A stretch of DNA of 64,000 bases from Dictyostelium discoideum (Eukaryota). Numbering within the stretch: the stretch's first letter is position 1; each line of letters begins with the position of its first letter. The DNA lies in NCBI GenBank assembly GCA_000004695.1, contig CM000153.2, forward strand, positions 3,584,001 through 3,648,000. Direction: 5' to 3'. The notes under the pieces were generated by a model that ran no database searches, had not been told where the DNA came from, and saw only the letters and a list, made by a program, of their open reading frames with translations. This document shows, piece after piece, positions 2,013 to 64,000 of this stretch. The position numbers were made by a program, and so were the translations under genes.

Positions 2013-4128
<2,116 letters not shown>

Positions 4129-4412
4129 TTTATGCTGTTCTATATATAAGGGATGATTTGGAATCTAAAGAAAAAAAAAAAAAAAATGAAAAAATTTAAT
4201 TTTTTAAAAAAAAAAAAAAAAAATTTCGCAAAAACTTAAAAAATTTAAAAAAAAAAAAAATGAACTTTTAAAACAAATAATTAAACTTTTTTTTTCTCAC
4301 TTATTTATTATTATTATTTTTTTTATTATTAATTTTTTTCTCACTTATTTATTATTATTATTTTTTTTTTTTTGGTTTTTGTTAAAAAAAAATGGGAAAT
4401 TTCCTATATTTT

Positions 4413-4455
<43 letters not shown>

Positions 4456-6064
4456 TCGATAATTTCTTATACTTGGTCTTTAATTGAATGTCAACTTATC
4501 AATTGTTGAATTAATTTTTTTTTATTTTTTTTTTATTTTTTTAATTTTTTTTATCATATCTTTTAATTATTAAATATTGTAAAATTATTAGAAAATGTCT
4601 AAACAAAAAAAAAAAAAATCTACCATCTTATTTTTACAATTTTAAAAATGAGGCAATTTTTTAAAATAATAATTTATTTTATCTATAATAACCTTTGATT
4701 TTTTGGTTTTGAACATTTTTTGTTATTTTTTTTATTTATTTTATTATATGATATATTATTTTTATTTCATTTATTTTTTTTAATTTATATAGCTTTTACC
4801 TAAAAACTTATTGAGCCTAAATAATTATTAAAGATAAAAAAAAATATTTATACAAAATATTTCATACTAAATTTTTTTTTTAATTTAATAATTTTAATTT
4901 TCTAATTTTTTTTATTTTTTTAAATTTTAATAATCCACATAAAGAATAGTTTTTATAAAAATAAAAATAAAATAAATAAATTAATTAAAAAAAACTTTCC
5001 AAACAACAAAAAAATCAGAGGCTTATTTATTTAGTAAATAAATAAATCAATTTAAAAATATTATAATAAAAAAAATTCTTATTTTTTTTTTTTTTTTTTT
5101 TTATATTTTTATTTTTATTTTTATTTTTGTTTTAGTTTTTTATTTTTAATAGATCTCTTGTAATAGATATAATGATTGTTATTTATTAATAAATATGCTT
5201 ATGATTAAAAATAATATAAAAATAGAAAAATAAAAAATAACTTCATTTACACTTTTATCTTTGCATTATTCCGTGTTAATTTTTTTTTATTTTTAGTTTG
5301 TTTTTTTTTATTTTTATTTTGATTCTTTTGGAACCGAATTATTCAAATTTAAAAATAAAAAAAAAAAAAAAAAAAAATAATAAAAAAAATCTTTTTCTCC
5401 TTTACGAAAATAATATCCAATTTTTGATATTTTTTGGTCGAAAAGGCACGAAATAAAAAATAACAAAAAAATTAAATTTTTCACTATCTTTTTTTAAAAA
5501 TAACCAGCTGGTTATGAGGATAGATTCAATGCGTTGTTTTGTAAAATATCAGTCCATTGAGGTTTTTTTTTTTTTTTTTCTTTATGCAATAAGTTTTTTT
5601 TTTTACTTTTTATTTTTCAAATAATACAAAAATAACAGTTTGCTGATTTTGAGGAATTTTTCCACCTTAACCATTTTGTTTGTGAATTAATTTTTATTTT
5701 TTATTTTTTTATTTTTTTTTTTTGTTGATGGTATTAAAATCAAAAACATAATTTTTTTTTTTCTTTTATTTTTTATTTTTTATATTTTTATTTAAAATTT
5801 TATTTTATTTTTAAAAAAATTCTTTTTATAGTTTTTTGTCTAACACACCCATTAACTAATCAACTTTTTTTTTTTATTTTTTTTAGCCTTATTTTTCTTT
5901 CCTTCTTTTTTTTTTTTTTTTTTTTTTTTTTTCACTGTAAATAACTTGTAAATAATATTGTATAAAATAATTAATTTAAAATAAAATAAAAAAAAAAAAA
6001 AAATAAAATAAAATAAAATTAAAAAAAAAGAAAATAAAATTAAAAAAAAAAGAAAGAAAGAGAA

Positions 6065-16763: not shown

Positions 16764-18200
16764 TTATTGGCAATAGTATTTAAGTAAAGGTTTATCAAGT
16801 GGTAAAAATTTATAGTCATGGGCTGTCATTAAAAGTTTAAGACTTTCTGGTGCCATATCATGTGTAAATGGATTGATTGTTTCACCTATTACGATATGGT
16901 TGATTGAATTTGGAAAAAGATCTTTGGATAATGGAAATTTATAAACAAGAAGTTCAAAAAACTCTAGTTCACTTGGGATTGATTCTTTAGTAAGTTTTTG
17001 GTCAATATCCTCTATTTTTAAATGACTCAATGATTCAGGATATTTAAATTTTGGATCCAGTTTCACTTTTATTAGAGATAATGAAAATATTGATTTTGGT
17101 AATTGATCATTTCCAATAACTTGAGAAACATTGCAAAGTACCAATTTATGAATACCATCAGTTGGGAAAAAGCTTGAATCAAATGGAAAATCTAAATTTT
17201 TTAAAGTTAACTCTCTGATTGAGCAATTTGATTTTGGCAAGGAAGTTTTATTAAAAATATGAGATTTGATACCATTAACAGTTAAACATCTAACATTACA
17301 AAATATATCTGGAGTAAGTTTATGGTTATAACCTCTTTCAAAATATAAATGTTGAACACTGATAGATGGCATTATATCTTTAGTAACAGCAAAATCTACC
17401 TGGCCAAAAACCATTTCCCGCACTTGTAAACCATATGAAAAGGGTGAAATTTTATGAGAGTATCCATTAAAAAACCTAACCTTTTCACCAAAGAAAATAT
17501 CTGGTACTGGATGGACAATATTACCAATTCCAACCGATCTTTCATAGTTATCAATCATCCAAGCATTCAATTTATGTTTGTACCCCCATCCAATATTTAC
17601 ACGATAATCTGTTGGTAAATCTTTAAATAGTTCTTTTGTAATTGGTTTGGAAATGTTTAGAATATTTATATCATGCTTTAGAGTACAAAATCCAAGTGGT
17701 GGAAACAATTTACTAATAACATTGAATTTGTAACCCTCACAAAAATAAATGCCTTTTGGGGAAATTGGTGGGTAAATTTTAAAAGGAGGTCTTAAACTAT
17801 TTTCATCCAAGGTGAATTTTGTTTTTATTATTAACAAAGAATCCAAATTGTCTATTATACTTTCATTTGTAATTTGATGAGAATAATTACCATCAAACAA
17901 TAAAGTTTTTATTGTGCCTTTTTCTAATAATTCTTTATTCAAAGGATAACCCATATCACCACCAACACCCAATTGATAAACGAAAGGTTGAACTATTTCC
18001 TTTGTAACTTGATTTTTATAGCCATTGAAACCCATAAATTTAATAGTATTTGGTATACTTTCACTGGTTAGTGCATAGGTAATATTAAAAAATATAGCAC
18101 CAATAACTGAACTTGGAATCATTTCTTTTTTAATATAATGTGCATAACCATCCAAAAAATAAATAAATTTAACATTTTTGTGAAAATTTATTTCATTCAA
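16764..18200 (-). CDS. hypothetical protein, 478 aa, with repeated F-x-G-Y-x-H-K / P-x-S-I motifs reminiscent of Dictyostelium FNIP repeats
   Basis: Track ORF. About 20-25-aa repeats with recurring FNGYSHKI, FDGNYSHQI and ERGYNHKL. The frame stays open about 90 nt upstream of the first ATG without another ATG, so an upstream exon is possible. Confidence 0.4.
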   Translation of the reverse strand: MNEINFHKNVKFIYFLDGYAHYIKKEMIPSSVIGAIFFNITYALTSESIPNTIKFMGFNGYKNQVTKEIVQPFVYQLGVGGDMGYPLNKELLEKGTIKTLLFDGNYSHQITNESIIDNLDSLLIIKTKFTLDENSLRPPFKIYPPISPKGIYFCEGYKFNVISKLFPPLGFCTLKHDINILNISKPITKELFKDLPTDYRVNIGWGYKHKLNAWMIDNYERSVGIGNIVHPVPDIFFGEKVRFFNGYSHKISPFSYGLQVREMVFGQVDFAVTKDIMPSISVQHLYFERGYNHKLTPDIFCNVRCLTVNGIKSHIFNKTSLPKSNCSIRELTLKNLDFPFDSSFFPTDGIHKLVLCNVSQVIGNDQLPKSIFSLSLIKVKLDPKFKYPESLSHLKIEDIDQKLTKESIPSELEFFELLVYKFPLSKDLFPNSINHIVIGETINPFTHDMAPESLKLLMTAHDYKFLPLDKPLLKYYCQ

Positions 18201-27146: not shown

Positions 27147-27178
<32 letters not shown>

Positions 27179-27728
27179 TAGCAATTGTTTTAGAATGTTA
27201 TAATGAAAATAGTGCAAGAACATTTTATATGGAATTATATAGAAGACCATTAGATACTAGTGATGTTGTTTGTTGGAAATCATTGATTACAATTCATAAG
27301 GTTGTACAAGAGGGACCAAAGAATGTATTAAGTGATACAATTAGTAGAGTTGGATGGTTTGAGAATTTGAGAGATCATTGGGCACGTTTTGATAATAGAG
27401 GATTTGGTAGATTGGTAGCAGACTATTGTACATTAATCATTGATAAAATACGTTTTCATCAAGCACATCCAGAATTTGATGGTGGATTATCCTTGGAGAA
27501 CTATAGCAAGAATCATAGACCCGAGTCAATTGAAGTTGACAAAGGTTTACAAACTGTAAATCGTTTAATGGATTTAACTGATGCTGTCTTTAGAATGCAT
27601 AATTCAATCGTATCAGCAACACCTTATAATGATTGTAAAACTTCTGCTTTCATTCCATTAGTTTTAGAATCTTATGCTATCTATATTTTAGTTGTACATT
27701 TTTTAACAAATTTAATTGATAGTAATGT

Positions 27729-27770
<42 letters not shown>

Positions 27771-30073
27771 ATGGTTATTAATATTTAAAATTTTAAATTT
27801 TAACAGAGGTTGATAATAAAGAAGTTATGGATTTTTCAATTAAAAGATTTTATGGTCAATATCAAACATTGAGAAACTTTTTTTTAAATGCAAGTGCAAT
27901 TACAAGTGTATCTAGTGTTATTGCAGTACCAAATTTACCACCAGATCCTCCAAAGTTTATTAGAAAAGTTAGAGAGGCACCAAAGGCCAAACCACAGGCA
28001 ATTCCACCACCAGTTGTAAAGGAACCACCAACACCACCACCTGAACAAATTCCAGTTCCAGTACCAACACCTGTATTCATTCGTCAAACGGTACCAGTGG
28101 TTTATGGCGCACCTTATGGTATGCAACAACAACAACAAGATAATAGTATGTGGGGTCAGTTTGGTTCCAATCAACCATTTGATCCAAATTTACAATTACA
28201 ACAACAACAAGCTGCATTATTACAACAACAACAGCTACAACAACAACAACTTTTACAACAACAACAGCTACAGCAACAGCTACAACAACAACAATTATTA
28301 CAACAACAACAAGCTGCTGCTTTGGCTGCCGCTCAGCAACAACAGCAACAACAGCAATCACCACCTCAAATTTCACCTCAATCATCAGCTCAATGGGTAA
28401 CATTTGGTGATGATGCACCAACAAGACAACGTTCAACTAGTACACCACCAGCTTTGGAAAAGAAAGAAGCATCAGTTGATAAACCAGCTTCACCACCAAA
28501 ATCAACAACAGCCAGTTCCAATACTGATAGTCAAGGAAAAACTAGAGTTATCACTAAAATCATTACAAAGACTGTCAACAATACACAAGAGATCAATGCT
28601 CTCAAAGCAAGAATTGAGGAATTGGAAAGATTACTTCAAGAGGAACAAGATAAAAATAAAGCACTCACATTGAAATTATCGGAACGTGAAGCTATGATTC
28701 AAGAGGTAACATCAGCAAGAAAGAGATTACAAGATATGAGTTCAACCAATGATAATTACACTGCCGAAGTGGTTAAACAAAATGAACAATTACGTGAACA
28801 ACTCATTGCCATCAGAGATTGGACTGAACGTACAAGACTTCAAAGATTAGAGAAAGAGTTTGGTTTGGCTGCTGGTTCAATTCAACAATATCTCTCACAA
28901 TTGGATAATCCAAACAATATGGGTAATCAAGAGGCAACTCATCAATTGGTTATCGAGGATTTGGTTAATCATTTACAACAAGCTCAACGTTTATCCGATC
29001 TTTGTAATCAAGAGGGTGATGATTTAGAAATGGATATTTTCTCTGCGGTCAATACAGTTTCAAACTCTTTGAAGAGTTTATTCTTTGATGCCAAGGGTTC
29101 ATCAAGATTAATTTTAGATCCAGAGTCACAAAGTAAATTTATGGATGCCGCAAGAAAAATTGGTGCTCTCACTCAAAATCTTTTCGAATCAATTCGACTC
29201 CAAGGTGGTCAATGTAATGATGATGAAGATCGTAAGAGATTGGCAAACAATTTTGCTTCCCTTAAAACTGGTATCAATAATTTGGATGCATTGGCTCAAC
29301 AAGCTGACGCTGAAAGAATTGAAGCCGAGAAGAAATATTTAGAGAATGGTTTTGATTTGGATGATGTTGCTGAACGTGAACTATTGGCTGCCGCTAAAAC
29401 CATTGAAGATGCTGCAAACTCATTATTGGCCGCAAAATCAAAGAGAGCTCCAAAGAAGGAGGGTGATTCACCAGATGTTGCTGAGGCAATCCTTGAGGCT
29501 GCTATGGCAATCACTGGTGCTACTTCCACATTGGTTGGTGCCGCCACTTTAGCACAAAGAGAACGTGTCGAAAAGGGTAGAACAAGTGATGGTGGTCCAC
29601 TCTATAGAAAGGATCCAACTTGGGCTGAAGGTTTAATCTCTGCTGCAAAATCTGTTGCCCAAGCCACTAAAGCTTTGGTAGATAATGCCAACAAGACAGC
29701 ATCTGGTCAAGAGATCCCAGGTGGTACAGAAGAAGCTCTCATTGCAACTTCGATGGCTGTAACTGCTGCAACTTCTCAATTGGTCTCTGCTTGTAAATCT
29801 AAATCTGATATCAATAGTCCTTCTCAACATAAACTTTCAAATGCTGCCAAATCCGTATCCAATGCAACCAATCTTTTAGTGGCTGCAGCCAAAGCTGTCG
29901 CTGCTAAAGTCGCCTCTGAAGAGGATATCGATTTCGATAAACTCACTGTCACTGGTTATAAAGTTAAAGAAATGGAACAACAAATGGCAATTCTCAGATT
30001 AGAAAAAGAATTAGAAGTCGCTAGAAAAGGTTTAAGTGTTATTAGAAAGAAACAATATGACGAAAATCAATAA
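26989..30073 (+). CDS. hipA: huntingtin-interacting protein 1-related / Sla2 homologue (ANTH domain, coiled coil, C-terminal I/LWEQ talin-like actin-binding module), about 961 aa; exons 26989..27064, 27182..27726, 27809..30073
   Basis: The ANTH-like N-terminus MTEFEAIVHKATNSKITAPKRKHV..IVLECYNENSARTFYMELYRRPLDTSDVVCWKSLITIHKVVQEGP parallels Sla2/HIP1R ([24 protein letters not shown]..). The I/LWEQ-type C-terminus includes KVKEMEQQMAILRLEKELEVARKGLSVIRKKQY. Donors are T|GTAAAT and AAT|GTATTT; acceptors are aaaaatag and acagag. 76+545+2265 = 2886 nt = 962 codons. There is a Q-rich tract at 28130-28370. Confidence 0.8.
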
Positions 30074-31363: not shown

Positions 31364-35240
<3,877 letters not shown>

Positions 35241-52501: not shown

Positions 52502-53632
52502 ATGAGCACAAATACAACAACAACAAATGCAACACCAGAATTAGCAAAAGAATCAGTATTTTTTCAATCAAATCATGAAGATTTAAAGAATAGACCAAAA
52601 GTTAGAGGTTATGATTTTAATGAAGGAGTTGATTTTAGTAAATTATTTGAAACATATAAGACGATTGGTTATCAAGCATCAGCAGTTGGAGAAGCAATAG
52701 ATGAAATTAATAGAATGATTTCATGGCGTTTAGTTGATGAACCATTAAAAGAAGGTGAAGATGATGACGAAGAAAGAAAAGTAACCAGATGTAAAATCTT
52801 TTTAGGATATACAAGTAATTTAGTATCTTCAGGTGTTAGAGAGATCATTAGATATTTGGTACAACATTCAATGGTTGATGTTATTGTTTCAACAGCAGGT
52901 GGTGTTGAAGAGGATTTCATTAAATGTTTAGCACCAACCTATATGGGTGAATTCCATTTAGAGGGTGAAAAACTTCGTAGAAAAGGGTTGAATAGAATTG
53001 GTAATCTTTTAGTTCCAAATGATAACTATTGCAAATTTGAAGATTGGATTATGCCAATTTTAGACCAAATGGTTGAAGAACAAAAAACCAAAGGTACCGT
53101 TTGGACACCATCTCGTGTTATCAATAGATTGGGTAAAGAAATCAATCATGAAGATTCAATTTATTATTGGGCTTGGAAGAATGATATCCCAGTTTACAGT
53201 CCAGCTCTTACCGATGGTAGCATTGGTGATATGATGTATTTCCATAGTTACAATACTCCAGGTTTAGTATTAGATATCATTAGTGATATTCGTGCAATCA
53301 ATAATCATGCTGTCTATAGTAAAAAAAGTGGTATGATCATTTTAGGTGGTGGTGTAATTAAACATCATATCTGTAATGCTAATCTCTTTAGAAATGGTGC
53401 TGACTATTCCGTTTTTGTAAACACTGGTAATGAATTTGATGGTAGTGACAGTGGTGCTCGTCCTGATGAAGCCGTCTCTTGGGGTAAAATTAAATTAGAT
53501 GCTAAACCAGTAAAAGTTTACTCTGAAGCTTCAATTGTTTTCCCAATTTTAGTTGCTGAAACTTTTGCTAAAACTTTTAAAAAGAAATCACCAGAAGAAT
53601 TAAAATTAAATAAAAGATCAATTTTTGATTAA
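52502..53632 (+). CDS. dhps: deoxyhypusine synthase, 376 aa, single exon
   Basis: Colinear with the deoxyhypusine synthase family: [62 protein letters not shown] and [13 protein letters not shown]. Confidence 0.9.
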
Positions 53633-54133: not shown

Positions 54134-54595
54134 ATGGATAATAATAAACAATTCTCAAACTTATGGATAAAAATTAAAAAAGCTTCAATAAATATTTCAA
54201 ATTTAGGATTATCAATTAATCAATTCCATGGTGGTGGATTATTAAATCAATTATTAAAAGATATTTTATCATTGTTAAGATTAAATAATGTTTCATTATT
54301 ATTCTCCACACAAGTGAAATTGATTTTACTAGATTGTTTTCAATACATTATAAAACAATTACATACTAGTAATCATGTGCAAAATTATTTAGATTCTTAT
54401 TTTAAATCAATTGATAATGAATCAATCATTGGTTCATTAGATCATTCTTCAAATAATTATCCATTTTTATCTTTATTATTTTTATTATCAAGATATCAAG
54501 GGTAAATAAAATTTAATTTATTATTTTCTTTTTTTTTATTTTTTTTTTATTATTGAAATATTTTATTAACATATTTGTTTTAAATTAATTTCCAA

Positions 54596-54645
<50 letters not shown>

Positions 54646-55604
54646 TAGATTTATAAATAATTTAAATAGTAGTGATAATCAAAATGAACAAAATAGAATT
54701 ATAATTATAAAAACAGAAAATTATTTAAATTTATTATTAGTAAATTATTTAAAGAGTGGATATATTGGTAATACTAGAAGAGGTAGTAGCACTAGTGGTG
54801 GAGGTGGTGGTAGCGCAAGTAGTAGAGGTGGTGGTAGTGGTTTTACAGATGAGGAACAGTTTGTTTTATCAGAAGATGATGATGAAATGATGAGTAGTGG
54901 TAGTGGTGGAAGTGGAGCTAATCAACAAAATCAAAAATTAAAAATTTTAGAGAATGAATTATTAGTAAATGTATTTTTTAAATTCTTTTCAATAATTGTT
55001 GAGAATAATAATTTAGCAATCTCATCATCACCATCATTATCTCGTTCTTCATCTTTAACAAATGTTTCAACTGCAACAACAGCAACAACAATAAATACCT
55101 CATCATCATCATCATCATCGTTACAATTGGTTAATATTAATAATAATTCAAAAAAAATTTTAAATGGTATGGATATTAAAATTTTAATATCATTATTTTG
55201 TATTGAACTTTCAAATAGCGCAACAGAGGTTTCATTAGTATCACCATTATCATTGGATTCCGTAAAGGTATTTGTGGATTACTCTTTAAAATTTTTAAAC
55301 CAATTATCAGAATTAGATTTCAATACCTTAGTCTCATATTATCAATTATTAAACCATAAGTTCATTTTCTTTAAATATTATTTAAAGTCAAATGAAAATG
55401 TAAGTTGTAATTATTAGTTTTTATAATATTTCCTAAAATTGGAAATTTTTTTTTTTTTCTAAAAATAGAAAAAAACAAAAGTGTGTGGTGGTAAAAAAAA
55501 AAAAGTGTTTAGATAAATACTAATTTTTATTTTTATTTTTAAATTGTCTTTTTTTTTTTTTTTTTATACTACTTTAATTTTTTTTTTAAATACATTGTTA
55601 ATTT

Positions 55605-55672
<68 letters not shown>

Positions 55673-56595
55673 CATATATATTTTATGTGTTTATTTTTAT
55701 TTTTATTTTTTTTTTTTATTTTTTTTTTGTATCTTTAATTTTTATATATATTATTATTTATTTTAGGTATATTTATCGACAAAATCAAGAGTAATATCAA
55801 TTTTAAATGTATCAAATCAACCAATATTACAATTAGAATTAGTTGAAATCTTAATTGAATGTTTATTCAATGATTATGGTAATAGTGATGGTGATAATGA
55901 AGATATTGAAATATTGAAATTTATTATTGATATTGTTAGTGGTGTACAATATATTTCCGATACATCCAAATCAAAGATTGGAAATGAAATCTTTGAAAGA
56001 TTCTTTAAATCTGACCAAAATCAAAGACCATTAGTAAATTACTTTTTACAAGAATTTACTCAAAGAAATAAAAAACAATTAACAACATTATTTCAAAATC
56101 ATATGAATTCAATTCTAACACCTGTATTTCATAAAAATTCAAATTTATTTAGTTTAAAATATTTTAAAACGTAAGTAATTATTAATAATAATAAAAAAAA
56201 AAAAAAAAAAATTATTTTATTTTATTTACTAATAAATAAATTTTTATTTTTTATTTTTTTTATTTTTCTTTTATTTTTTTTATTATAGTTTTATAACAAG
56301 TCCAGAATTTAAATTATTAATATCAGAAAGTGAAATATTTTTAAATCAAATTACAGTAATTCCAAATGAATTAAATGTATTGGAATATTATGATATCCTT
56401 TGTAAAGTATCATCAATTAAATTAACACAGCAAATTTTATGTGACCTTTCTTTAAATGATTTATTAGATTTTTCAATTAAACAAGATTTATTACATTTAA
56501 ATCCAATTGGTTTTAGATTTGCTTTAAAAAATGTATGTTTTTTTTTAATTTTTTTTTTTTTTTTTTTATCCATAATTAATATTAACATAAATTTG

Positions 56596-56641
<46 letters not shown>

Positions 56642-57544
56642 TAAAGCAAATTGATAAATATGATAAAAATAAATTAGATGAAACTATTTTTAAAGAAATT
56701 ATAAATTTTGAAGAAAAAAGAGTAAATGTTGAATTTTCAATTGAAAATAATTTAAAAGGTGGATTAATTCAATATAAATCAATTTGTCAAACATTGGTTG
56801 ATATTATAATTGGTAGTAGTTCATGGTTAGATATTTCAAAAGCAGATAACATTAAATCAAATTCATTAGTTTGGGTATTATTTATTAATCAATATATTGA
56901 ATATCAAATTTCAAAGATATTAGAATACGAATATCGTTTTAATAATTTATCAACACCAGAGGAGAAATCAACATTTACTTTTTCCATCTCCTTTGAAAAA
57001 TTATTTTCACCAATTTTAAAATTAAATTCTTTAAAAGAGTTTATAAAAAAACGTACAAATACAACTGATGATAATGATAATTTTGAATTAATTGAAAATA
57101 ATAATAATAATAATATTAATAATAATAATCAAATTATTATAATCTCACCAGATTTAAATAATAATGATAATAATAATGAAACAACAAAGAATTTATGGGA
57201 AAATGAATTCAGAGTATTAAATTCATTAATATTTAAAATTAAAGATTATTTAATGAATAGAGTTAAATATTTAGAAGAAATGTATGAACCAACTTTTACA
57301 AATGAATATCAAAATGTAATTCAATTATTAAAAGATTTCTATAAAGTTAATACAACCGATTTGTTCTCAGAGATATCAGAATTAGAATATAATTATCATA
57401 ATGATAAGAAACTTTATCCATTATTTAAAAAGTATACTGAATATATGAAAAGATTTGGTTTCAACATTAAAGATTTAAATATTGAACCTAGAAAATTAAA
57501 TTATCAAATTATATCTTATTCAAATTTATTTAAAAAGAAAACTT

Positions 57545-57590
<46 letters not shown>

Positions 57591-58854
57591 TGATGATACA
57601 AGTTATATAATTGGTAATACAAATTCTGTAAAAAGTAAACAATCTTTAATAAATCAATCAATAATTTCAAAATCAACTAGTAATAGTAGTGCTAATAATT
57701 GTAATATAAGTAATAATAGTAATAGTAGTAATAATAGTAATAGCAGTAATAATAGTAATAGTGGTAATAATAGTAGTAATGGTAGTAATGAAGGTTCAGA
57801 AGAAGAAGAAATTAATAATAATAATAATAATAATAATCAAAGTACAAATATCAATAATGTAAATCTTTTAAGTGTAAATCAAAATCGTAATAATAATAAT
57901 ATTAATAATAATATTAATAACAATAATAAACAACAACAAGAATTTTATAGACAAAAATATAATATTGATGAAATGATTGAAATGATAAAATTTATTGGTT
58001 ATTTTAGAATGAATAGAGTAACAATATTTAGTTTATTATTTGAAGAGTTTTCATTAGAAGAGAAATCATTAAATAAAGTAGTAGAAATGATTAAAGACTA
58101 TTTTAAACAATTAGTACCAATATCAAATATAGATTTAATAAAAGTACCAATTAATTCATTACTTGATAGAGTAATAAATGATCATTCAATTGATTTCAAA
58201 AGAGAGATTTTATTAATTTATGAATTCCTTTATCCATCAACTATAACAATAACAACAACAGCAACAAAAGAAAAAGAGTTTAGTAGAAATCCATTATCAA
58301 TGTCAAGAGTATTTAATCAAGATACAATTAATGAAGAAGAAGAAGAAGAAGAAGGGGAACAAGAAGAAGAATCAGATTTTTCAATAGTTTATCAAGAGAT
58401 TTCTAAATTATTTGAAAATTGTAAAAGATATTTTATATTTCAAAGAGATATTCAACATTTTATTGATTTTATTTATAGAGAATCAGATTATATTGAAATT
58501 TCAAATTTAACATCATTTAATCAAGAGTTGGAATCATTAAAACAAGAGAAATGGACAACTGTGAAATTATCTGTAGATATTGAAAATAGAATTCAACAAT
58601 TAATTGGTACAAATTCAATTTATCATCTTCAACTATTTCAAGGTATCAATAGACAATTAATGGATTGGTTCTCAAAGTTTAGTGATATTCAAAATTTCGT
58701 TAGTCAATGTCAAATGATTAATGATAGAATTTCAATGGAATTAGATAGATCAGAGAATAGTAATTTAATTAATAATGCTGATTATGCATTTAAATCAATT
58801 CATAGATTCGTTAAATATTATAAAACTTATAAAAAATCTTTAAAAGATAATCAA

Positions 58855-58926
<72 letters not shown>

Positions 58927-59295
58927 CAAAATAATAATCAAAATAATAATAATAATATTATTAAATCAAAATTTGAAAATGTTTATCAATTCTTTGAAAG
59001 TAGTTTTTGTAATGATTCACCATCATCATTTAATATATTAGTAAAAGTTTTTAAGAATATTGATAAGATAAAAGTAATTTTCGAATCATATACATTAGAT
59101 GATTCAAAAAATATTGCAAAGATTGCACAATTAATTGTAAAAGAGAAATCTAAATTCATTTCTTATTCAAGTAAAAGTTTAAATGGTATTGGTTGGATGG
59201 TACAAGCAAATGGTTCAACTGTTAAATATGGTCAAGATTTAATTGATGATCTTTACCGTGGTTTAGAATTAGGTCAAGAGCAACAACAAAAGGAA

Positions 59296-59336
<41 letters not shown>

Positions 59337-60610
59337 ACAAAAACAACAACAAACTGAAAATAATGAAATTGAAAAAATACAACCAATTTGGATTGAGCAA
59401 TTCCGTAAACTTTATAGAAATATTAAAAAAGTTCATAAAATTCATCAACAATTAGATCAAATGCATCATCCAGGTTATCCAAATGGTGAGATTGAAGTTT
59501 TAATTGAATGTTTATTAGATGATTCAAATCCATTATCATTGTATCAAAAGATTTTATCATTGAAAGCAGATTGTAAAGATTGGAAAAATAAAATGAAAGA
59601 TTTACCACGTCAATTATTATTATTAAAGAGTAAAGGTATTTCATCATTTTATTCAAAAATTGATAAATTCTTAAAATCACCAGAGATCATTAATCAAGAT
59701 AACATGTTATCAAGAGATAGTGTAATTGTATTATGTTCTTTAATTTATCCATATGTTAAATACTGTTTCCCTCTAATTGAAATCGATGAACAATTAATAT
59801 TTACAACTATAAATAAGAATTTATTATTAAAATCTACAAAGAGAACTTTTGAATTTTTAAAAGTATTTTTTAATTTTTTACAACCAGAATTAAAATTAAA
59901 ATTTAATTTTGATTTATCAAATTTATCAATTTCTTCAAATCAATTAATTTTAAATAATAATAATAATAATAATACTTCAGTGTCATTTTCACCATCTTCA
60001 ACATCAACAATTAATTCTCAAATTATAATTTTAAAATGTGAAAATTTTGAAAATGTTTACAATTCATTATTTTTAGCAAATGATAAAAAGGCACCACATC
60101 CATCGCAAATATTTTATTCATCAAGTAATGAAACATTTGATTTTCAACATTTTAATGAAATTCAAAATTTAGGTTTATCTTTAAATTATTTCTTAATTGG
60201 ATTACCACAAAATAAAGATGAATTATTTAAATGGATTTCAAAAAAATATATTAATAACAATAACAATAATAATAATAATATAAATAATAATAATAATAAT
60301 AATAGTAAAATATTTTTAGTAACAACAGAGAATAGAGAATTAATTGAAATATTTAATAATGTTAAACAATTAGAAGTTAAAGATGCAGATTGGAGTCAAT
60401 TTAAAAGTTATTGGTCATCAATTCATAATAGTATTGGTATTGGTTCAATTTCAATTTTAACAGGTAATGGTAAAACTCATTACGTTAAATCTGAAATGAA
60501 TGAAAAGCAAATTAAACAAGGTATACCATCAATTTCAATTCATATTAGACCAAATTGGGATTGTAATACAATAGTTTCAAATCTTTCAAAATATTTAATT
60601 AATGGAAAGC

Positions 60611-60705
<95 letters not shown>

Positions 60706-63700
60706 AGAGTTTCATTATATTTCTTTATTTCAAGTTATTATGATTATAATCAATTTAATCAATTCATTTATCCATTAGTAACTTATGGTTTCATTGTTAG
60801 TGATAATGGTGAAATATTTAATTTATCAAATGGTTTATTATTGGATATTTATATTGAAATTGGTTCATTTATTGAAAATGATAATATTAATATTAATAAT
60901 TTAAAGAATAATAATAATAATAATATTCAAATTAATCACAATGAATTAAAATATATAAAATCAATTATACCATTTTTATATAATATTGGTAATGTTATAG
61001 ATTCAAGTAAACCATGGGAATGTGATAATTTAATTGAAAAGAAATGTTTCCGTTATTTATATTATATTAAAGAGTATAATTATGATTATGAAAATTCAAT
61101 TGAATTTTATCAAAAACCACAACAAGTTAATACTAGTAATATGGAGAAAGAAGGTTATGGAATGAATGAATTCATTCAAGATGTTAGATTATTATTAAGA
61201 AAACAATTTCCAAGTGATTGGGAGAAAACTATAATTCCCTATTCAGATTTCCTCGGTATAAAGAATCAATATCTTCACGAAAGAAAGAATTTCTTTGCAT
61301 TACTTTCAGAGAAATTAGATTATATGGATGTTTATATTGATAATTCACTTAATCATTGTTCAAATATTGGTAATCTTTTACCATGGATTCTATTGGAATG
61401 TTTAGTATTGACATGTCCAGATTTTTCAAATCAATCAAGTAAACAACTTTGGTCAAATCCACCAACAATTTCAAAGACTCATTTGGATTATTGTAAAAAG
61501 AATAGATTAGGTATACCAACCGATGCTCATCCTTTAGAATTTATAGATTTCAATGATAATATGAAAACTTATTCAAAACTTATTAATAAATATTCAACAT
61601 TAAATTTAGTAGATAATGAATGGATACGTGGGAATCATATTTTCAATTTAGAATCATCAGTGCTTAAAAAGAGGGAATTCTATAAATTGGTTGCAAAATT
61701 CTTTAAAATCTATGATTCAAATAATAGTATGATCATTGAAAAGTTGTGTTTGGACTCAGGTTATATTCTAACACCAGAGTTTTCACTACGTTTAATTATT
61801 TTACATGACCGTCTAAGATATCAAAAATCCGTTGTAATGGTTGGCGGTACTGGTGTTGGTAAAACTAAATTACTTTATTTCTATTCAATCATTTTAAATT
61901 TTCAATATGTAGAGGAGGCTCAAAAAGAATTCAATGCAAAATTAATTGAAGAAATTAATAGAATCATTGATAAACGTGAATCTGCAACTCATAAAATTAA
62001 ATCATTAGCTCATATTCATAGGATTACAGAGGTGATTGAAGATCTTGCTAAAGAACGTCCAATTGCAACTAAAGATTTCTTAAATGGTTTGGTTGAATTT
62101 ATATTAAAACAATTATCAAAGAATCATTTAGTACATAAGGATCATCCACAATTGGAATATTATCGTCAAAAACATCTCTATAAAGCAATCACTTTAGATG
62201 ATGCAAAAATATTTTCAAAATTAGCTTGTAATCAATTAAATTATATTAAAGTTTATCATAGATTTGTAATGCATTTGAAATTCACTTCAATCATTTTTAA
62301 ACAAACTTTACAATCAATCTTTTTAGATGCAAATCATCTTTTATCCTTAAAAAGTGATATCAAAATTTTAGTATTCCTTGATGAATTCAATTGTTGTCCA
62401 ACTGATACCCTAAGTTTAATTAATGAAATTTTCATGGATAAAACAATTGATGGTATACCAATTCCAACTAATATTTATTGGATTGGTGCAATGAATCCAT
62501 TAACAAAATTATCAAAACAACCACCAATAACAATAGCAACATCAAATATTATTGGTAAACATAATTTAAAGACAAGTTCAAATTCATTACCAACAACAAC
62601 AACAACTACAACAAATAATAATGATATTATTGATAATAATAATAATAATAATAATAATGAATTAATAAAATCAAAATCAGTATTATTAGATTTTACAGGT
62701 GTTGAAGAAAATGATAATTTAAGAGATCATGTATTTTTAGTTCAACCAACACCACCATCAATGAATAAGATAGTTTTTAATTTTGGTGAATTTAAACAAG
62801 ATAATGAAAAACCATTTTTAGAATGTTTATTTGAAATTAAGCATTCAGATTTAGATGTAAACTTTAGTAGAAATTTAATAACGGTAATTAATGAATGTCA
62901 AGACTTTTTAAGAAATCCAATAATAATCAATAGTAAAATTCATCCATCAATTCGTGATATAATGAGAGCTTCGAAATTATATGATTTCTTTACAACCAAT
63001 TCAATTGGTGTTCAAATTTTAATTTCAAGTGGTTTCTTTTCTGATGAAGAAAGACAATTGTTTTATTCGGAAAAGAATAAACAACAAAATTTAAATTTAT
63101 CATTATCAACTTCTTCCTCTGGTATTGGTATTGCTCAACAAATAGTTCCAACTCATCTTTTAAATAAAGATGTTTTACATTGGTGTTCAATTATTACTAC
63201 AGTTTTCGTTGCTTATTATTTAAGAGTACCAGTAGCTTATCGTAAATTATTTAAAGAGAAATTACAGCAATGTTTTGATAAAATTTTAAAACCAAATATT
63301 TTTCAATTTAAATCATCATCATCATCATCATCTTCATCTTCATCAAATTTAAATAAATCCTATGATAATAATAATAATAATAATAGTAATATTAACAACA
63401 AACCAATCACATTTAGTAAAGTTTATAAAGAAATTTTAAGATCATTTTCAGAGAAAATTAAATCAAAAATTCCAAAAGGTGTTGCATTAACTCAATCATT
63501 ACAATTGAATATTTTCACAATGATAATTTCAATTAATGTTGGTATTGGTTTATTAATTGTTGGTCCACCAGGATCTTCAAAAACTATTAGTTTAGGTATT
63601 GTTATTGATATTATGAATGATAATAATGTTGTTAATCAATATTCTTCTTCATCATCGTCATCATCATCATCATCATCGTCTGTTGATAATGGAAATAATA

Positions 63701-64000
63701 ATAATAATGGTAGGTTAAATAAATCTAATATACCAATTACAGCATCAACTAATAATATTAATAAATCACAAAATAATAATGGTATTATTGGTAATAATGG
63801 TGGTGGAACAAATAATAATAATAATAGAAATAAACAAATTGATTATAATAATGGATTTTTTGATATGGCAAATATTTATACAACAAAGTATTGTTGTACA
63901 CCACATACATCAGATGAGGAGATTAAAGCTAAATATGCTCAAGCAATACGTCATCAAGATTTCTTCCAAATGACAAAACATGTTGTATTTTTAGATGAGG
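54134..64000 (+). CDS. giant protein (more than 3040 codons in-window, 3-prime end beyond the window) with at least two P-loop AAA+-type NTPase modules, RNF213/midasin/dynein-related; exons 54134..54501, 54649..55399, 55767..56170, 56289..56532 and 56647..beyond 64000
   Basis: Donors are GG|GTAAAT, AAT|GTAAGT, AC|GTAAGT and AAT|GTATGT. The first four exons sum to 1767 nt = 589 codons. The last exon is open for 7354 nt to the window edge in the same frame (63781 minus 56647 is divisible by 3). Walker A VVMVGGTGVGKTKL (about 61831-61866) with Walker B ILVFLDEFNCC (about 62366-62398) and AMNP. A second Walker A LIVGPPGSSKT (about 63559-63588) with a Walker B-like VVFLDE at 63979-63996. A coding (CAA)31 lies at 60610-60704. 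Confidence 0.65.
55607..55672. repeat. poly(T) run of about 66 nt inside intron 2 of the giant gene
   Basis: Homopolymer read directly. Confidence 0.9.
60610..60704 (+). repeat. (CAA)n coding microsatellite (about 31 units, polyQ) in the giant AAA+ gene
   Basis: Read directly. Confidence 0.9.

Follow-up and report, generated by a model that had tools for sequence, protein, structure and literature searches.

The window analysed here, 64,000 nucleotides of the Dictyostelium discoideum genome (GenBank assembly GCA_000004695.1, contig CM000153.2, positions 3,584,001 to 3,648,000 of the forward strand), ends within a giant gene that starts at window position 54134 on the plus strand and that is related to RNF213 (mysterin). 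Very probably the gene encodes an intact protein of about 5,500 amino acids centred on an RNF213-type, dynein-like ring of non-equivalent AAA+ units carried in one chain. It is just as probable, the effector part being judged on orthologous sequences, that this RNF213-type AAA core is combined with an effector half of an unrecognised kind. Within the window, a fast-evolving arm of about 1,400 amino acids is followed by a helical region, by AAA1-like, AAA2-like and AAA3-like modules and by the start of an AAA4-like module; AAA5 and the start of AAA6 follow in the orthologues. The homology with RNF213 is solid, and the apparent absence of the RING and RZ fingers, seen in the orthologues, is intriguing.

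Sequence similarity to RNF213

When the last 1,000 residues encoded in the window were compared with the sequences in PDB, only RNF213 chains were matched significantly (E 1.7e-11), the next-best matches being to HslU at E 0.6. The match consists of five collinear pieces, three of them in AAA3 (Walker A; Walker B with sensor 1; sensor 2 region) and two in AAA4 (Walker A; Walker B). The orthologue of Dictyostelium purpureum matched RNF213 at E 5.6e-31 (construct residues 2024-2817) in an alignment that extends about 400 residues past the AAA4 Walker motifs, into AAA5. A profile of four dictyostelid sequences reached RNF213 at E 8e-67 over a single stretch corresponding to mouse residues 2437-3264, and no other PDB protein at E 0.01 or better. 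The RNF213 core ends at residue 3405, and the alignment up to mouse 3264 covers AAA5 and part of AAA6, as read from the orthologues and not from window sequence. Neither dynein nor midasin reached E 0.01 in these searches, whether the window fragment, the orthologue or the profile was used. The first-pass annotation of the window, which was made from the sequence alone, had pointed to the RNF213, midasin or dynein-related group; RNF213 stands as the only significant and collinear match among PDB sequences, and the other two names fall away. The further AAA modules that it expected downstream are seen in the orthologue (to construct residue 2817 in D. purpureum, and to mouse 3264 with the profile).

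Similarity was also evident at the level of the whole family. A vertebrate RNF213 fragment matched nearly all of the listed relatives of the giant protein at about 1e-30 to 1e-60, and the window protein was 28% identical to Polypterus RNF213 over 653 conserved columns, which makes this vertebrate sequence about as close to it as non-dictyostelid amoebozoans are.

AAA modules and pre-ring region

The AAA3-like module (61750-63300, plus strand like all other features of the gene; the ends are approximate) carries a complete motif set: Walker A GGTGVGKT at 61843-61866 (GETGCGKT in RNF213), Walker B ILVFLDEF at 62365-62388 (ILFFDEAN), GAMNP at 62485-62499 (AACNP) and SIRDIMRA at 62947-62970 (SLRDVERC). 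Its Walker A lies at residue 2322 of about 5,500; the counterpart in human RNF213 we take to lie at roughly 2420 of 5,207 residues. The first part of the AAA4-like module occupies 63400-64000 and is truncated by the window end. Its Walker A, VGPPGSSKT at 63559-63585, aligns to LFLVGKPGSSKS of RNF213, and its Walker B, VVFLDE at 63982-63999, is formed by the last six complete codons of the window and aligns to VVVLD. Walker A, Walker B and the sensor motifs are thus all present in AAA3, and both Walker motifs of AAA4 lie within the window, its sensor motifs falling beyond. These motifs (GGTGVGKT, ILVFLDEF and AMNP in the first module, VGPPGSSKT and the VVFLDE at the very edge in the second) were found where the first-pass annotation had placed them. 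Its two Walker modules are both confirmed, but the count was too low: a third, shortened P-loop, ILTGNGKT at 60454-60477, is present about 460 residues upstream of the first of them.

This P-loop belongs to an AAA2-like module (residues ~1854-2279, 60439-61716), in which the Walker B position, SLYFFISSYYD at 60712-60744, has no D-E pair and is separated from the P-loop by a poly-Q insert. It is preceded by an AAA1-like alpha/beta module (residues ~1715-1849, 60022-60426) without a Walker A, no GK[ST] being present. Searched with a hidden Markov model (HMM) of the AAA2 module, nearly all full-length relatives that were matched showed it at a distance of about 350-450 residues before the AAA3 Walker A. 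The consensus of the AAA2 P-loop among the relatives is G-x-SG-x-GKT, and the loop is four residues shorter in the orthologues of D. discoideum, D. purpureum and Polysphondylium violaceum (ILTGNGKT, ILIGNGKT and ILTGKGKT) than in the paralogues and other relatives. In alignments of 25 and 16 relatives, G485 and K486 of the loop do not vary.

The structure of residues 1380-2290 (AAA3 excluded) was predicted with AlphaFold2 from a 16-sequence alignment, with a mean predicted local distance difference test score (pLDDT) of 73 and a predicted template modelling score (pTM) of 0.65. The model shows a largely helical region, then an alpha/beta module without a P-loop, and then a module of strand, P-loop and helix (model residues 475-501) with a further strand at 563-571. 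When it was searched against PDB with Foldseek, the top three matches were RNF213 (E 6.9e-10 to 7.5e-8, about 930 aligned columns), and dynein motor domains came next at about 1e-3. According to the model, residues ~1715-2280 are predicted to be two further AAA+-fold modules, one degenerate (AAA1-like) and one P-loop-only (AAA2-like). The pre-ring region before them (residues ~1380-1714, 59017-60021) was modelled mostly as long helices with few short strands (pLDDT 70-94). It may be the counterpart of the linker of RNF213 and dynein, a label that we infer from a structure search giving no aligned ranges. The earlier statement that the N-terminal 2,000 amino acids have no recognisable domain is therefore true for Pfam and wrong at the fold level for residues 1380-2290.

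In mouse RNF213, competence is limited to AAA3 and AAA4; AAA1 is inactive, and AAA2 holds ATP but has neither Walker B nor sensor I (PMC7311170). Judged by its motifs, the pattern of active and inactive units in the Dictyostelium protein appears equal to that of the mouse protein at all four units seen (AAA1-AAA4).

Gene structure and coding evidence

The gene is intact, contains introns and has about 5,500 codons, of which the 5' 55% lie in the window. Five exons were recognised, at 54134-54501 (ATG at 54134, 368 nucleotides, ending in phase 2), 54649-55399, 55767-56170, 56289-56532 and 56647-64000, the last of which is open to the window end (7,353 nucleotides, 2,451 codons), with the gene running on past it. 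The four introns, of 114-367 nucleotides, lie at 54502-54648 (GTAAAT..AG, 5% G+C), 55400-55766 (GTAAGT..AG, 9%), 56171-56288 (GTAAGT..AG, 4%) and 56533-56646 (GTATGT..AG, 6%). After splicing, 9,120 nucleotides or 3,040 codons are translated with zero stops. Exon 5 alone has 0 stops where about 244 would be expected by composition (log10 P of none = -111; the DNA is 78% A+T), the remaining five frames over the same stretch have 152-498 stops, and the G+C content at its three codon positions is 31, 25 and 10%. The five exons of the first-pass annotation are borne out by the GT..AG introns of 4-9% G+C and the stop-free spliced frame, and so are the more than 9 kb of coding sequence running off the window and the uninterrupted last exon of 7.35 kb.

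Comparison with other dictyostelids supported most of the exon boundaries. The BLASTP alignment with the P. violaceum orthologue is unbroken over the exon 2/3, 3/4 and 4/5 junctions (residues 332-674, E 5e-24); it includes residues 332-373 of exon 2 and spans both junctions of exon 3 as well as of exon 4. Exon 1 (residues 1-123) has no homologue coverage and is the weakest-supported exon, and the acceptor of exon 2 is ambiguous, a start at 54670 being equally possible with the frame kept either way. The gene call in the assembly GCA_054883475.1 starts 1,632 bases past the first base of the deoxyhypusine synthase gene, which maps to window position 54134 provided that no indel intervenes. Intron 4 is in frame and free of stops. 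A plain open reading frame scan reads through it as a 2,588-codon frame from 56236, and it is betrayed only by its GT..AG ends, its 6% G+C and its poly-phenylalanine translation.

The N-terminal arm and the post-ring half

Residues 1-1379 (54134-59016) form a helical, N/S/Q-rich, fast-evolving region with no Pfam match and no genuine PDB sequence match, only low-complexity matches being obtained. Residues 1-1070 are conserved solely with the D. purpureum and P. violaceum orthologues. The N-terminal arm of RNF213 bears a CBM20 carbohydrate-binding domain (PMC11549300); over residues 1-2040, neither a Pfam match nor similarity to a PDB sequence was found.

The half behind the ring was read from the D. 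purpureum and P. violaceum orthologues. In D. purpureum it is about 1,900 residues long, and in both the profile and the single-sequence PDB searches the detectable similarity to RNF213 ends inside the AAA core. Over the full length of the D. purpureum orthologue, Pfam recognised no RING or RZ finger at E 0.1 or better, and the final 900 residues of that of P. violaceum had no Pfam match at E 1 or better, RING and RZ included. As a positive control, the same Pfam scan recognised ZnF_RZ-type at E 5e-14 in the relative from Diphylleia (P0124). A C3HC4-type RING pattern was found in none of 150 relatives and an RZ-like C..GH.[YFW] pattern in four of the 150, a clear RZ finger being present only in Diphylleia. 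The E3 (ubiquitin ligase) domains that had been expected downstream were thus not found in the sequences examined. In RNF213, ligase activity requires the Cys/His pair of the RZ domain, and it is ATP bound to the ring that turns this activity on (PMC12075652). Because of this dependence, and because RZ and RING were not found in the orthologues, the gene is not filed here as an RNF213 E3 ligase.

A model of residues 2821-4020 of the D. purpureum orthologue was all-helical and of low confidence (pLDDT 60.7, pTM 0.39), and Foldseek matched it, evidently by chance, to generic alpha-solenoids, with no RNF213 and nothing at E 1e-3 or better; a model of this quality is too weak for the lack of an RNF213 match to be read as a true negative. 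The gap between the flanking aligned post-ring blocks is 390 residues in this orthologue group compared with 716 in the dictyostelid paralogues.

Two candidates for domains in this half were given up. A degenerate RZ finger in the dictyostelid paralogues (FPAC-D-x-GH-x-FRD-[YC]-GM) was dropped, as the iterated HMM missed the RZ protein of Diphylleia; this HMM, of about 480 residues around the FPAC-D-x-GH motif, spread to 39 relatives and not to the orthologues of the gene studied here. USP-like and SAM-like domains noted by eye in the C-termini of paralogues and orthologues are not claimed, there being no Pfam match at E 1 or better.

Relatives and paralogue groups

An exhaustive HMMER search over 1.8 billion cluster representatives returned 574 of them at E 1e-3 or better and 156 at 1e-10 or better. 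The relatives share the AAA2-AAA3-AAA4 core and are mostly 4,000-6,000 amino acids long, and their C-terminal halves vary by lineage. The best relative is the D. purpureum protein F0ZAD4 (69% identity, annotated "hypothetical protein"), followed by the P. violaceum protein (57%) and by dictyostelid paralogues at 34-40%. Further relatives were found in Polysphondylium, Acytostelium, Heterostelium, Protostelium, Mastigamoeba and Pelomyxa, and more distant ones in Diphylleia, Chromera, Picozoa, the choanoflagellate Mylnosiga and the sponges Oscarella and Sycon, as well as vertebrate RNF213. Their database names are hypothetical, uncharacterised, AAA+ ATPase and once VWFA-domain, and none is RNF213-like.

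At least two paralogue groups of the giant protein are present in dictyostelids (e.g., P0008 and P0009 in Acytostelium, P0003 and P0012 in Polysphondylium). The group of the window gene lacks, as far as BLAST can detect, a conserved post-ring region of about 480 residues that occurs in the other group and, in total, in 39 relatives. One relative (P0018) has two copies of this region (2899-3380 and 4112-4600), i.e., an internal duplication of about 1,200 residues. Cys-rich clusters behind the ring, IBR/RBR-like by eye, were noticed in relatives from Chrysophaeum (P0107) and Picozoa (P0137) and in a third relative (P0090), e.g., CPRCGQAFVDFQNCFALTCSRAGCGCGFCAYC; that of Picozoa falls outside the block aligned by the 480-residue HMM. 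These clusters, as judged by eye, suggest that different ligase fingers could sit on the same AAA chassis.

A word-indexed protein search behaved differently from the exhaustive one. A query of 800 amino acids returned a vertebrate RNF213 fragment only, and a query of 271 amino acids without low-complexity tracts returned nothing. These nulls are uninformative because the search missed the 69%-identical D. purpureum orthologue, which was found by the exhaustive search; null results of word-indexed searches are untrustworthy for low-complexity, AT-rich eukaryotic proteins.

Discussion

The Dictyostelium protein resembles RNF213 in being a single chain of about 5,000-5,500 residues in which the ring is central, in its collinear homology from the AAA3 Walker A into AAA6 (family profile, E 8e-67), in a dead AAA1, a P-loop-only AAA2 and complete AAA3 and AAA4, in a long and poorly conserved N-terminal arm, and in a region upstream of AAA3 whose best fold match is RNF213. 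It differs in that RING and RZ fingers were not found in the closest full-length orthologue and that no similarity to the E3 module, the C-terminal domain, the N-arm or CBM20 was detectable. The AAA2 P-loop is shortened, and long poly-N, poly-Q and poly-S inserts are present. Moreover, the host is an amoebozoan, whereas RNF213 has been described as a protein of all vertebrates (PMC7311170).

Several observations weigh against this assignment. No AAA domain was above the Pfam threshold in the window protein, in which nothing at all exceeded it, and the AAA support is sub-threshold only (AAA_5, AAA_7 and AAA in the D. purpureum orthologue). The Foldseek template modelling scores to RNF213 are globally low (0.34-0.37) at an identity of 10-11%. 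The unit-by-unit assignment of AAA1 and AAA2 is based on position and motifs, the Foldseek output being without aligned ranges. Nucleotide binding at AAA2 is uncertain, since its P-loop, compared with that of the paralogues, is four residues short and has its first glycine replaced. Finally, the C-terminal ~2,460 residues lie beyond the window, and the account of the effector half is taken from orthologues that are 69% and 57% identical.

Other explanations of the locus were considered. The gene model could be an artefact, in which the upstream exons are a separate small gene or the locus is a decaying pseudogene; exon 1 is without a homologue and residues 1-330 match nothing, as this explanation would have it. 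However, the frame is free of stops over all 9,120 nucleotides of the five exons, with canonical splice sites, the alignment with the orthologue is continuous over three junctions, every catalytic motif is intact, and three independent assemblies, 94-99.7% identical, agree in calling a single gene here, so that an artefact is very improbable. Even less credit can be given to the possibility that the protein is a relative of midasin (Rea1/Mdn1) or of the dynein heavy chain instead of RNF213. Dynein motor domains and Mdn1 do occur among the fold matches of the AAA1/AAA2 model, and the sub-threshold Pfam matches of the orthologue include the dynein-related AAA_5 and AAA_7, but no dynein or midasin chain reached E 0.01 in any PDB sequence search, compared with 8e-67 for RNF213, and Foldseek favours RNF213 over dynein by about six orders of magnitude. 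The first ring unit is without a P-loop, whereas AAA1 is the main motor site of dynein (PMC7311170). In comparison with cytoplasmic dynein heavy chain, the AAA4-AAA5 stretch of the orthologue aligns to RNF213 with no stalk-sized or microtubule-binding insert, and the N-terminal DHC domains of Pfam were found neither in the window protein nor in the orthologue. In comparison with midasin, the ring is central and not near the N-terminus, and no MIDAS or VWA domain was found by Pfam in the orthologue.

More weight is due to the alternative that the gene is a full functional orthologue of RNF213, i.e., an ATP-activated transthiolating E3, with its catalytic zinc finger in the C-terminal half past the window or too diverged for Pfam and patterns to recognise. 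The protein agrees with RNF213 in overall size and in where the ring lies, and the ~1,900 post-ring residues of D. purpureum are similar to the hinge, E3 module and C-terminal domain of RNF213 taken together (PMC7311170). At least one non-animal relative, that of Diphylleia, retains a true RZ finger (E 5e-14), and Cys-rich clusters occur near the same region in other relatives. On the other hand, neither finger was recognised in the whole D. purpureum protein (E 0.1) or in the last 900 residues of P. violaceum (E 1), the RING pattern is absent from all 150 relatives, and the RZ-like pattern is limited to four of them and clear only in Diphylleia. The PDB searches with profile and single sequence stop at the AAA core, the post-ring model matched generic alpha-solenoids only, and the post-ring gap is shorter than in the dictyostelid paralogues (390 versus 716 residues). 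We therefore regard a full functional orthologue as unlikely, and an RNF213-type core with an unrecognised effector half is preferred.

If the protein with this core works as RNF213 does, for which the unit pattern and a switch model have been described (PMC7311170), it would be a nucleotide-state switch and not a processive motor or unfoldase. By this analogy, ATP held at AAA2 would be structural and glue AAA2 to AAA3, and ATP binding and hydrolysis at AAA3 and AAA4 would open and close the ring, which in turn would control a large helical C-terminal module. As no RING or RZ was found in the closest full-length orthologue, the output would be either something other than ubiquitin ligation or ligation via an unrecognised catalytic element. 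ATP-dependent assembly on membranes or bacteria is a speculative suggestion for this output, and a reasonable guess because Dictyostelium lives by phagocytosing bacteria.

With more reserve, it is possible, although we would not expect it, that the RNF213-type ring is an ancient, pre-animal ATP-switch chassis to which lineage-specific outputs were attached: RZ in animals and Diphylleia, other Cys-rich fingers in Picozoa and Chrysophaeum, and in Dictyostelia a helical module devoid of RING and RZ that would have an undescribed catalysis or a non-ligase role, such as ATP-dependent assembly of a coat or scaffold on membranes or bacteria.

RNF213 has been studied almost entirely in mammals, as the gene of moyamoya disease and as a ligase that ubiquitylates bacterial lipopolysaccharide. 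Cell-autonomous antibacterial defence has a standard model in Dictyostelia, which are professional phagocytes, and Dictyostelium is haploid, genetically tractable and phagocytic. A relative of RNF213 in this organism would give a simple system for what the ATPase ring does alone, and would let one ask whether the ring was linked with the surveillance of pathogens or membranes before the RZ and RING ligase parts arose. A full-text literature search (RNF213 or mysterin in Dictyostelium, Amoebozoa, protists, unicellular eukaryotes and choanoflagellates) found no description of a non-animal homologue, and the RZ domain of another protein, ZNFX1, has been traced back to choanoflagellates (preprint, 10.1101/2025.10.14.682297). 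The gene has long been public as a hypothetical protein, and its link with RNF213, which standard searches find easily, may already stand in domain databases.

The locus and its neighbours

The window was 99.7% identical to GCA_054883475.1 over 21 kb and only about 94-95% identical to two further NCBI assemblies across the locus of the giant gene; the aligned loci of the assemblies stop at about window 63,630-63,760. In all three assemblies the giant gene is a single gene call, with products of 5,536 amino acids in GCA_054883475.1 and of 5,498 and 5,505 amino acids in the two 94-95% assemblies, and none of these products has a Pfam match on record. The latter two assemblies are from diverged strains or sibling species, among which the length of the gene differs.

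Directly upstream of the giant gene lies an intron-less deoxyhypusine synthase gene (Pfam DS; 52502-53632, plus strand, 376 amino acids), whose exact protein sequence is present in the three NCBI assemblies and in one Logan read-set assembly. The window also carries genes of the ordinary Dictyostelium type, among them those of a protein with FNIP repeats, of a talin/Sla2-like I/LWEQ protein, of an Hsp70-like protein and of a Y_phosphatase2 protein. No tRNA gene and no Rfam family was matched anywhere in the window.

The composition scan gave about 20% G+C throughout the window apart from a single G+C-rich stretch (39.5% over 28001-30000). This stretch, 27797-30070 on the plus strand, encodes talin IBS2B and I/LWEQ domains in an open frame of 758 codons, and an ANTH/ENTH-like frame, called by eye, lies just upstream of it at 27148-27768. 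A long trinucleotide repeat occupies 32081-32238 and matches, at 98-100% identity and in many registers, a giant-gene stretch (17959-18075) in one of the 94-95% assemblies (L001).

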